From NCBI GenBank assembly GCA_049517415.1, contig JBEKSC010000019.1:1-55145 (forward strand): a DNA stretch of 55,145 bases. Reading direction: 5' to 3'. A model generated the notes under the pieces. It ran no database searches. It saw only the letters and a program-made list of their open reading frames with translations, and was not told the DNA's origin. This stretch comes from Candidatus Bathyarchaeia archaeon. Its GTDB lineage: Archaea > Thermoproteota > Bathyarchaeia > 40CM-2-53-6. Positions 5,817 through 52,580 of the stretch are shown here, piece by piece. Position numbers and translations under genes: made by a program. Numbering within the stretch: position 1 is the stretch's first letter; every line of letters begins with the position of its first letter.

Positions 5817-6115
5817 GGGTTGGCGAGTTGGTGAGCGACTCCGGGTCCTGTGTGTAGTGGGCCTGAGGAAACTCCATCCACATGGCGGACGCGTGGCACT
5901 GTGAGGTGCCAGCCGAGAGGTTGGGTTAAGGCGCAGAAAAAAACCTCTGCTAGCCGTGGACTATGATGCGCTTGCGTTGAGGAGGCTGGCGGTAAGGGTG
6001 AAATGCCTACACACGCTGTGAAAGGGATAATAGGCGCCCGTGAAAACCGCCGGAGGCGCGGGTATCCCGATTAGATGAATGTCGCCTAAAACAGAAGGTG
6101 GGTTACAGCCAACAC
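5817..6115 (+). ncRNA. rnpB: RNase P RNA
   Basis: GAGGAAACTCC (CR-I) and AACAGAAGGTGGGTTAC (CR-V); terminal GTTGGC/GCCAAC P1 pairing. Confidence 0.9.
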
Positions 6116-6332
6116 GCCGACCCGTTACATTATTTACCGCATTTTCAAAATCTCGCTTGTTTCCAGCTGTTTGCATTTCTGCTTGAACAATGTCGCTTTG
6201 TACGTGCATGTACGTACGTTTTCCAGTGGAGTCAGCGATTGCTTGCTCGGTTAGCCTGCTTGTATTAATTCCAAGAGCTTTTGCTTGCCGAACCAAATCG
6301 CTATCCACACGAAGAGTAAGCTTCTGTCTCAT
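5961..6332 (-). CDS. CcdA/RHH-like small DNA-binding (antitoxin-like) protein; the ORF tail runs antisense into rnpB
   Basis: MRQKLTLRVDSDLVRQAKALGINTSRLTEQAI resembles CcdA-family N-termini; the C-terminal part is just antisense rnpB. Confidence 0.55.
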   Translation of the reverse strand: MRQKLTLRVDSDLVRQAKALGINTSRLTEQAIADSTGKRTYMHVQSDIVQAEMQTAGNKRDFENAVNNVTGRRVGCNPPSVLGDIHLIGIPAPPAVFTGAYYPFHSVCRHFTLTASLLNASAS

Positions 6333-41731: not shown

Positions 41732-42130
41732 TTTCATTTCTCACTAGGGTAACCGGGGGTGAGACATTAGAAGTGTACGTGGTGCCTCTTGATTTCGTAC
41801 GTTTTTCTTGTTCGATGAGAAAAAACAGCTGGATTCCCGATAGCGTTCGGCCGGTTGTCACCTTCCTTGATCCGGTCAGGAATCTCCAATCTGGTTTCAT
41901 TCTGTTGTTTGTGTGCTTCCCAGAAGCTGTCACTTCTCAACTTTTGAGGCTGCCCTTAGTACCATCTGCTTTCCTAATCAGATCTGGCAAAATCGTGATT
42001 TTCCGGATTCGCTGAAAGCCAGATTCTCCTCCAGATTTGTGCCTTCTTCCCCCAAATACTCCGCAACAGTCAAAACGTACAAACAACCGCAATCCACAAA
42101 AACCACCCCACAGTCTTTTGATTTCTTACT

Positions 42131-42277
42131 AGCGGGGTGGGGTAGCCAGGTTTAACCCGCAGAACCTTCCCGTGCGGAGGGCTCATATCCTGGCGAGAAA
42201 CCCTGAGATTGAGTTGAAAGACTCCTCAACCGGTGGTTCGAAAGGCCATAAGCCCGAACATCCACCCCCCGCTACCA
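42131..42277 (+). tRNA. Initiator tRNA-Met(CAU) with four introns (29/30, 37/38, 47/48, 59/60)
   Basis: Removing 42163-42179, 42188-42199, 42210-42230 and 42243-42260 gives AGCGGGGUGGGGUAGCCAGGUUUAACCCGCAGGGCUCAUAACCCUGAGAUCGGUGGUUCGAAUCCACCCCCCGCUACCA (79 nt; A1-U72, three G-C anticodon-stem pairs, encoded CCA). Confidence 0.92.
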
Positions 42278-42384
42278 ACCGTAATTCGGTTCTACCAGTT
42301 CGAACCAGTCATTGCGAAGACAAAAATATGCCATTCCGGAGGTTTCATAATACCCTTAGCCTAGAGTAGGAGTAGCTGAGTCCC

Positions 42385-52405: not shown

Positions 52406-52580
52406 TGGTGGGGCGGGAGGGAATATCATGACCTTCCCGGTCATTTTGAACCCTCGATCACCGGTGTACTCGCTGTTCAGTATTTTTGGTCCCGAGACCG
52501 GTTTCAAGGCGAACTGTATTCGCTATCTTAGACCAAGTTGTCCCCACGATGGGTAGACTCGTGGCCTGGACCACCGCCCC
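52406..52580 (-). tRNA. tRNA-Pro(CGG) with four introns (15/16, 25/26, 37/38, 59/60)
   Basis: Removing 52538-52565, 52503-52524, 52467-52490 and 52423-52444 gives GGGGCGGUGGUCCAGCUUGGUCUAAGAUACCGGUCUCGGGCACCGGUGAUCGAGGGUUCAAAUCCCUCCCGCCCCACCA (79 nt, G37, encoded CCA). Confidence 0.9.

Follow-up and report, generated by a model that had tools for sequence, protein, structure and literature searches.

A predicted initiator tRNA-Met gene with four bulge-helix-bulge introns in a Bathyarchaeia archaeon

We find that the initiator tRNA-Met gene of a Candidatus Bathyarchaeia archaeon is interrupted by four short insertions, each placed at a bulge-helix-bulge (BHB) type site. The gene occupies positions 42131-42277 (+) of a 55,145-nt stretch of genomic DNA (hereafter the window) and consists of five exons separated by insertions of 17, 12, 21 and 18 nt. 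We consider it very probable that this is a single functional initiator gene, that its four introns are cut at BHB motifs by a two-subunit splicing endonuclease, EndA, and that its exons are joined by RtcB. The gene would be transcribed as a precursor of ~147 nt carrying all four introns, an EndA of the two-subunit crenarchaeal type would cut each intron at its own motif, and RtcB would join the exons to leave a normal 76-nt tRNA plus CCA. This proposal rests on direct results for the anatomy of the gene, the conservation of its exons and junctions, the geometry of its BHB motifs, the enzymes encoded in the genome and the lack of a second initiator gene in the assembly.

Results

Anatomy of the gene

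Exon 1 (42131-42162; tRNA positions 1-29) contains the 5' strand of the acceptor stem, the D-arm and the start of the anticodon stem, and is followed by intron 1 (I1; 42163-42179, 17 nt) at 29/30. The 8-nt exon 2 (42180-42187; positions 30-37) includes the CAU anticodon and ends at intron 2 (I2; 42188-42199, 12 nt) at 37/38. The 10-nt exon 3 (42200-42209; positions 38-47) precedes intron 3 (I3; 42210-42230, 21 nt) at 47/48, and the 12-nt exon 4 (42231-42242; positions 48-59), with the 5' strand of the T-stem and most of the T-loop, precedes intron 4 (I4; 42243-42260, 18 nt) at 59/60. Exon 5 (42261-42277; positions 60-76) supplies the 3' strands of the T- and acceptor stems, the discriminator A and an encoded CCA; all of these features are on the + strand. 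Because the D-loop is 11 nt long, the cuts correspond to Sprinzl positions 29/30, 37/38, 47/48 and 59/60.

Joining the exons by their coordinates agreed in full with the boundaries, insertion lengths and tRNA positions proposed in a first-pass annotation of the window, which had been made from the sequence alone. When joined in silico, the exons give a 79-nt tRNA-Met(cat) that ARAGORN folds into a cloverleaf with every stem pair formed, bearing out the perfect initiator cloverleaf expected by that annotation. Archaeal initiator tRNA-Met is identified by an A1:U72 pair together with three consecutive G:C pairs (29-31:39-41). The spliced product has A1:U72, G29-31:C39-41 in the anticodon stem, a TTCGAAT T-loop and the encoded CCA.

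The gene is situated between open reading frames. Two short reading frames that overlap it (41913-42155 and 42172-42369) were rejected as coding, because conservation is confined to the exons and the changes in intron length do not come in threes, a pattern that fits an RNA gene.

Splice motifs

With the cut placed after the second base of each bulge (marked ^), the four cores are CCGC/GCGG with bulges AG^A and AG^G (I1), CTCA/CGAG with TA^T and AA^A (I2), TGAG/CTCA with AT^T and AC^C (I3), and TTCG/CGAA with AA^A and CA^T (I4). All of the cores quoted in the first-pass annotation, and its rule for the position of the cut, were recovered. That annotation had also described three of the motifs as textbook BHBs. 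I1, I3 and I4 do have central helices with 4/4 pairs and bulges of 3 nt. The description holds for I3, a full hBHBh' motif with an h of 2 bp, an h' of 5 bp and a GAAA loop, and for I4, also hBHBh', with an h of 5 bp provided by the T-stem and an h' of 3 bp; it does not hold for I1, where the exon-side h is 1 bp and h' is 2 bp, an HBh'-like form. I2 is relaxed, as had been anticipated: 3/4 central pairs form, the fourth being an A.C mismatch, the intron helix is absent, and the outer helix, an h of 4 bp, is the anticodon stem itself (hBH-like).

Several motifs borrow bases from the mature tRNA. For its central helix, I1 takes C24, C25, G26 and C27 from the D-stem and the uppermost part of the anticodon stem. 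The I3 motif uses U42-G45, with C40 and C41 paired to G49 and G50; the I4 motif uses the T-loop and takes the T-stem as its outer helix; and the I2 motif requires the anticodon stem.

The cores are preserved among the relatives described below. The I1 central helix keeps 4/4 pairs in 21/21 distinct alleles that carry I1, the I3 core keeps 4/4 with h and h' each of at least 2 bp in 33/33, and the I4 core keeps 4/4 in 39/40. For I2, the 12-nt form found in the genus has 3/4 pairs in 14/16 distinct alleles and 2/4 in one, an 11-nt variant has 3/4, and other lineages have 15-nt introns at this site with a 4/4 core.

Intron presence and absence among relatives

We searched 40 relatives with the 147-nt gene using BLAST and then made spliced alignments of the predicted mature sequence. 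Twelve of the 22 genomes of the same genus carry all four insertions at identical sites with no exon mismatches, and a further two carry three insertions and are missing I3. Outside the genus, one locus from another family lacks only I2, two loci from other families lack only I1, a locus from a sister genus has just I3 and I4, and a locus from another family has just I2 and I3. The exons are joined exactly at the expected junction where I1 is missing (L017-L020) and where I2 is missing (L016, L019); I3 is missing from L014 and L015, and I4 from L020, L052 and L058. An exact search with the exon-1 32-mer, over one genome per prokaryote species, found the identical 32-mer in 41 loci, nearly all annotated as Bathyarchaeota or Bathyarchaeia. 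These have four introns (13 loci), three (9) or two (19), with 0-2 exon mismatches. When both sets are pooled, the 61 loci comprise 42 distinct gene sequences and seven combinations of intron presence and absence; for every one of the four junctions there is therefore a relative whose DNA runs through it without interruption.

A class-wide BLAST search with a probe lacking I1 and I2 matched 135 of 201 genomes. The 30 loci returned are biased toward few introns, because the probe has neither I1 nor I2: 19 are intron-free, three have one intron (at 59/60), five have two, one has three and two are cut by a contig end. The best intron-free ortholog differs from our spliced product at four aligned positions. 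Three intron-free loci, L096, L099 and L097, score 65.6, 64 and 62 bits on the Rfam tRNA model RF00005 (cut-off 29) and show 4-5 aligned differences from the spliced product, mostly compensating stem pairs.

In an alignment of 14 distinct four-intron alleles, the exons show no variation, and all of the variable columns fall within introns. The introns diverge in both sequence and length, with 11 distinct sequences for I1, three for I2, 14 for I3 and 14 for I4, I2 being conspicuously constant. Across lineages, pairing in the intron helices is maintained although the types of pair vary. Pairs of the I3 intron helix take 2 to 5 standard pair types across lineages, and the second pair of the I3 hairpin is formed in 33/33 alleles by five standard pair types. 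Within the genus, 98.6% of cells are paired, as compared to 34-47% with slid partners. Covariation at this level is weak: only two pairs vary in both partners, and the observed score is attained in 16 of 500 shuffles. Taken at the level of DNA sequence, these comparisons confirm that the locus is a genuine initiator tRNA-Met gene, interrupted four times at BHB-type sites.

Eight of the 22 same-genus genomes (G016, G015, G003, G008 and G005; also G009, G010 and G020) gave no BLAST match to the initiator gene. In the first five, we sought the gene with a 5' 20-mer, a 3' 17-mer and a gapped anticodon-arm pattern and found none; neither an intron-free ortholog used as query against the same five nor a look at three weak-hit regions of G016 revealed the gene. 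One of these five probe-negative genomes is 96% complete in 3 contigs. The Pro(CGG) tRNA gene is likewise unmatched in four of the unmatched same-genus genomes. The unmatched genomes may form a divergent subclade, or they may have an initiator gene that is in more pieces, split or permuted. In another same-genus genome (G013), two four-intron initiator copies with different intron sequences (L007 and L059) are found on two contigs, which may reflect a true duplication or a bin that mixes two strains.

Folding of the precursor and order of splicing

We folded the full precursor with ViennaRNA, imposing the BHB cores singly or together. The I3 and I4 cores are both part of the minimum-energy fold, with ensemble probabilities of 0.7 and 0.4, respectively. 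Imposing the I1 core alone costs 4.7 kcal/mol and the I2 core alone 5.7 kcal/mol, each with a probability below 1e-3 in the naked precursor, and the cost of I2 falls to 2.9 kcal/mol after removal of I3. Joint costs are 5.4 kcal/mol for I1, I3 and I4, 12.2 for I1 and I2, and 13.5 for all four. By the same measure, single introns in other tRNA genes of this genome span 0.6-9.3 kcal/mol, so these costs are not disqualifying.

In these folding models, the likely order of removal is I3 and I4 first, then I1, with I2 late. I3 and I4 would be pre-formed substrates, and I1 would require the opening of the D-stem and of the top of the anticodon stem. I2 is probably cut late because the anticodon stem that it relies on is disturbed by I1 and I3. 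The ordered refolding that the first-pass annotation had suggested is plausible to this extent, in silico only, given that the I3 and I4 motifs are predicted to be pre-formed and those of I1 and I2 are costly. We also observe that I2 is complementary to the D-loop (42145-42150 with 42189-42194; GCCAGG with CCUGGC, 6 bp). This helix occurs in the predicted minimum-energy fold and is compatible with the motifs of I1, I3 and I4 and incompatible with that of I2 itself. The 12-nt form of I2 occurs only together with I1.

The character of I2 raises an alternative in which splicing is limited to the other three introns and the 12 nt at 37/38 are not removed, or not by EndA; the RNA would then retain them within an unusual anticodon or variable region, or such molecules would be dead ends. 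The relaxed 3/4 core without an intron helix is in line with this, as is its cost of 4.4-5.9 kcal/mol in most splice states, and an earlier version of our tRNA finder (described below) threaded the locus with three introns, placing I2 in a 17-nt "variable arm" next to an anticodon stem of 4/5 pairs. However, L016, L019 and the 19 intron-free loci have an anticodon arm that is continuous at exactly 37/38. Were only three introns removed, the G:C-rich initiator stem would be lost and the product would be a long-arm tRNA, a form that none of the uninterrupted orthologs has. In addition, 37/38 is the canonical intron site, occupied in other lineages by the 15-nt introns with complete cores, and alpha-beta EndA enzymes are reported to cut relaxed motifs in the available parts of two reviews (PMC4033280, PMC4090602). 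We judge this alternative very unlikely, and favor the removal of all four introns.

Gene copy number, RNA data and upstream region

The assembly comprises 2.65 Mb in 59 contigs, with an estimated completeness of 100% and an estimated contamination of 6.86%. Neither BLAST with the gene nor blastn-short with the spliced product found a second initiator-like sequence in it; an intronless initiator gene elsewhere, which the first-pass annotation had named, in combination with a lack of spliced reads, as speaking against its reading, is likewise absent from the assembly by both searches. The other tRNA gene with a CAU anticodon (C7:89986-90092) carries G1:C72, lacks the GGG/CCC stem and is itself interrupted by two introns. 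In two near-closed relatives, G014 (3 contigs) and G018 (5 contigs), the initiator gene is the only strong match.

Three metatranscriptome runs (shares 0.19, 0.06 and 0.06) yielded 0, 6 and 1 matching contigs, all from relatives and with no splice joints. These are exon-1 pieces plus two unspliced stretches, one over 42097-42271 (12 other letters, 7 gaps) and one over 42126-42209. We infer RNA splicing at the four sites from the DNA.

Upstream of the initiator gene (42091-42130), we found no clear TATA-like box at the distance seen for other tRNA genes of the genome, where a TTTATA/TTTAAG-like box lies roughly 25-35 nt upstream. The region has a T-rich stretch between about -16 and -7 and, between about -36 and -26, an A-rich box, CCACAAAAACC. 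Three close relatives share the A-rich box, two of them in identical form, and other relatives have TTATCTA or CCTTTTAAAAC further upstream. Promoter and terminator scans at the gene, based on a bacterial consensus, returned nothing.

A second alternative is that the locus is a decaying pseudogene full of insertions, and that the working initiator gene lies in unassembled DNA. An assembly of 59 contigs with the above contamination leaves some room for this, tRNA genes are often missing from metagenome bins, and the metatranscriptome contigs, from relatives only, are without spliced joints. Against it, the exons are 100% identical over the 14 distinct alleles while the introns diverge around preserved BHB cores, and the gene is the sole strong match in the near-closed G014 and G018, with completeness estimated at 100%. 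We give the pseudogene little credence and retain the functional gene as our interpretation.

Splicing enzymes

The genome encodes two EndA proteins, each with the domains PF01974 and PF02778. The 190-aa protein (C10:75178 region) aligns end to end with crenarchaeal catalytic subunits, those of the Aeropyrum, Sulfolobus and Pyrobaculum enzymes (E values of 7.5e-39 to 4.9e-28). The GIDHAPF histidine lies within the aligned part, as does the lysine-rich loop before the end of the N-terminal domain. The 187-aa protein (C2:42070 region) is divergent and has a gap at the position of the catalytic His of the M. jannaschii enzyme. The predicted arrangement is alpha-beta, of the crenarchaeal type, with a catalytic alpha subunit and a beta subunit that lacks the His. 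RtcB is also encoded (C5:94022-95332; 572.9 bits). Two reviews link alpha-beta EndA with relaxed motifs and with introns that are multiple or lie at non-canonical positions (PMC4090602, PMC4033280). By analogy with these reviewed enzymes, we infer that the host EndA would accept non-canonical sites.

Detection and chance control

On the unspliced gene, ARAGORN run with and without -i found nothing, nor did Rfam at its gathering score or at E<=10 over 600 bases around the gene. The prediction of the first-pass annotation that standard tRNA finders would miss the locus is true of ARAGORN and of the Rfam tRNA model. Because deleting four arbitrary segments gives much freedom, we built a chance control. 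Our BHB-threading finder starts from a 7-bp acceptor stem with its CCA and fits a cloverleaf around candidate introns that have BHB-like boundaries. The initiator locus scores 28.4. In the control, the whole genome read backwards (5.29 Mb over both strands, 3919 anchors), the best score is 22.1 and the next 19.9. Relaxed BHB-like boundaries are common by chance and the finder yields many low-scoring multi-intron solutions, but the distance of the locus from the control maximum, the same architecture in many independent assemblies and a product colinear with uninterrupted orthologs leave the idea of a by-product of this freedom, or of an assembly chimera, effectively refuted by the relatives.

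Other multi-intron tRNA genes in the genome

Rfam detects 18 tRNA genes in the 2.65 Mb and ARAGORN 28; CCA is encoded behind 16 of the 18 Rfam-detected genes. Our finder places 22 tRNA genes above every control score, of which 21 are interrupted, by 47 introns (2.1 per gene), with one gene corrected by hand. This census is partial, because the finder requires a perfect 7-bp acceptor stem and an encoded CCA. The Leu(TAA) solution (score 24.1), which is counted among the 22, and all solutions at or below 22.7 are not trusted.

Three further genes have four introns each, a finder score of at least 28 and a spliced product that ARAGORN accepts as a valid tRNA: Tyr(GTA) at C2:37344-37542 (-), Lys(TTT) at C2:31012-31198 (-) and Pro(GGG) at C6:94952-95128 (+). 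A fourth, Pro(CGG), lies in the window itself (52406-52580, -) and was read manually; its spliced product is a valid tRNA-Pro. Its introns, all on the - strand, are 28 nt in the D-loop (52538-52565), at the same site as in Pro(GGG), 22 nt (52503-52524), 24 nt at 37/38 (52467-52490) and 22 nt at 59/60 (52423-52444). The finder had returned a five-intron solution for this gene, which we rejected, as it wrongly splits the D-loop intron in two. We count four introns, not five, because relatives show one 28-nt intron whose GTCC/GGAC core is perfect and whose 6-bp hairpin covaries. The initiator, Tyr, Gln(TTG) and Pro(CGG) genes all have an intron at 59/60 with a TTCR/YGAA core. As predicted from these sequences, the genome has at least four further four-intron tRNA genes, one of them in the window, and the four-intron state that the first-pass annotation had treated as exceptional is not unique to the initiator gene in this genome.

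The window also contains an archaeal 16S rRNA gene (141-1689, -; 1463.8 bits) and an archaeal RNase P RNA gene (5823-6117, +; 172.5 bits). No match to 23S rRNA was found within the window.

Discussion

If our interpretation is correct, every protein of this organism would start with a tRNA that requires eight endonuclease cuts and four ligations. The initiator gene would then be a stringent natural substrate for the study of how alpha-beta EndA recognizes relaxed, mutually exclusive BHBs, and in what order. Its relatives, with 0, 1, 2, 3 or 4 introns in an otherwise frozen gene, provide a clean series for intron gain and loss. There is also a practical consequence for annotation: genome bins of this group will seem to lack an initiator tRNA, because ARAGORN and the Rfam tRNA model miss such genes.

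A more speculative extension is that the four introns are not independent insertions and instead form an encoded maturation program, in which the supply of initiator tRNA is gated by a fixed order of EndA and RtcB steps. On this idea, which draws on the folding models, the pairing of I2 with the D-loop would hold the D-arm open, so that the I1 motif, which borrows C24-C27, could form beside the pre-formed motifs of I3 and I4; I2 would become a substrate only after the others were gone. We think such a program unlikely, though worth stating: if true, the fixed order of EndA and RtcB steps would gate translation initiation.

The first-pass annotation placed a four-intron tRNA at or beyond the described extreme. 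The gene does exceed the "maximum of three introns" given for archaeal tRNA genes in the available part of a 2014 review (PMC4033280), and the paper on tRNAscan-SE 2.0 speaks, in the part available, of "two or three introns" per tRNA gene (PMC8450103). The claim needs qualifying in view of an Asgard preprint of October 2026 (10.64898/2026.10.13.758758), the accessible text of which describes genes with as many as five intervening sequences and, for its focal families, ~2.2 per gene, located at BHB boundaries and in many cases missed by standard annotation. "Bathyarchae", "initiator" and "iMet" have no occurrences in the accessible text of that preprint. Our literature search, in which subscription journals are poorly covered, returned no paper that describes Bathyarchaeia tRNAs with multiple introns or any archaeal tRNA with four; PMC12918454 mentions Bathyarchaeia solely in connection with rRNA circularization. 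Together with the other four-intron genes of the genome, the initiator gene shows in a Bathyarchaeia lineage a tRNA intron load that had been described before only for Thermoproteales, where each gene has fewer introns, and for the Asgard archaea of the preprint.

Among the closest parallels are the multi-intron tRNAs of Thermoproteales (Sugahara et al. 2008), here compared through the available parts of PMC4033280 and PMC4090602. As in the Bathyarchaeia gene, their introns are short BHB introns at canonical and non-canonical sites, distributed over the D-, anticodon-, variable- and T-regions, in hosts with an alpha-beta EndA and with relaxed motifs tolerated. They differ in having at most three introns, where ours has four, and in belonging to hyperthermophiles rather than to a Bathyarchaeia host; in addition, the gene described here is the sole initiator tRNA gene. 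The Asgard tRNAs (10.64898/2026.10.13.758758) are, in the preprint text available, similar in having multiple intervening sequences at BHB boundaries and come from a different phylum. A eukaryotic counterpart is the tRNA-Ile(UAU) of the red alga Cyanidioschyzon merolae, which is interrupted in the D-arm, at 37/38 and in the T-loop; the part of that report available to us gives RT-PCR evidence that the outer introns are removed before the 37/38 intron, an order that resembles the one suggested by folding for the Bathyarchaeia initiator (PMC3728597). The C. merolae gene is nuclear, has three introns and is experimentally proven, whereas the Bathyarchaeia gene has four, predicted from DNA. Finally, the permuted initiator tRNA-Met of Thermofilum pendens (Chan et al. 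2011, as cited in the available part of PMC4090602) shares a BHB disruption of the T-arm and an EndA-dependent maturation, but that gene is circularly permuted and ours is colinear with four introns. Set beside these systems, the mechanism is already known; the novelty lies in the lineage and in how many introns interrupt a sole initiator gene. The Bathyarchaeia initiator gene is an extreme example of a known archaeal habit and not a unique one.
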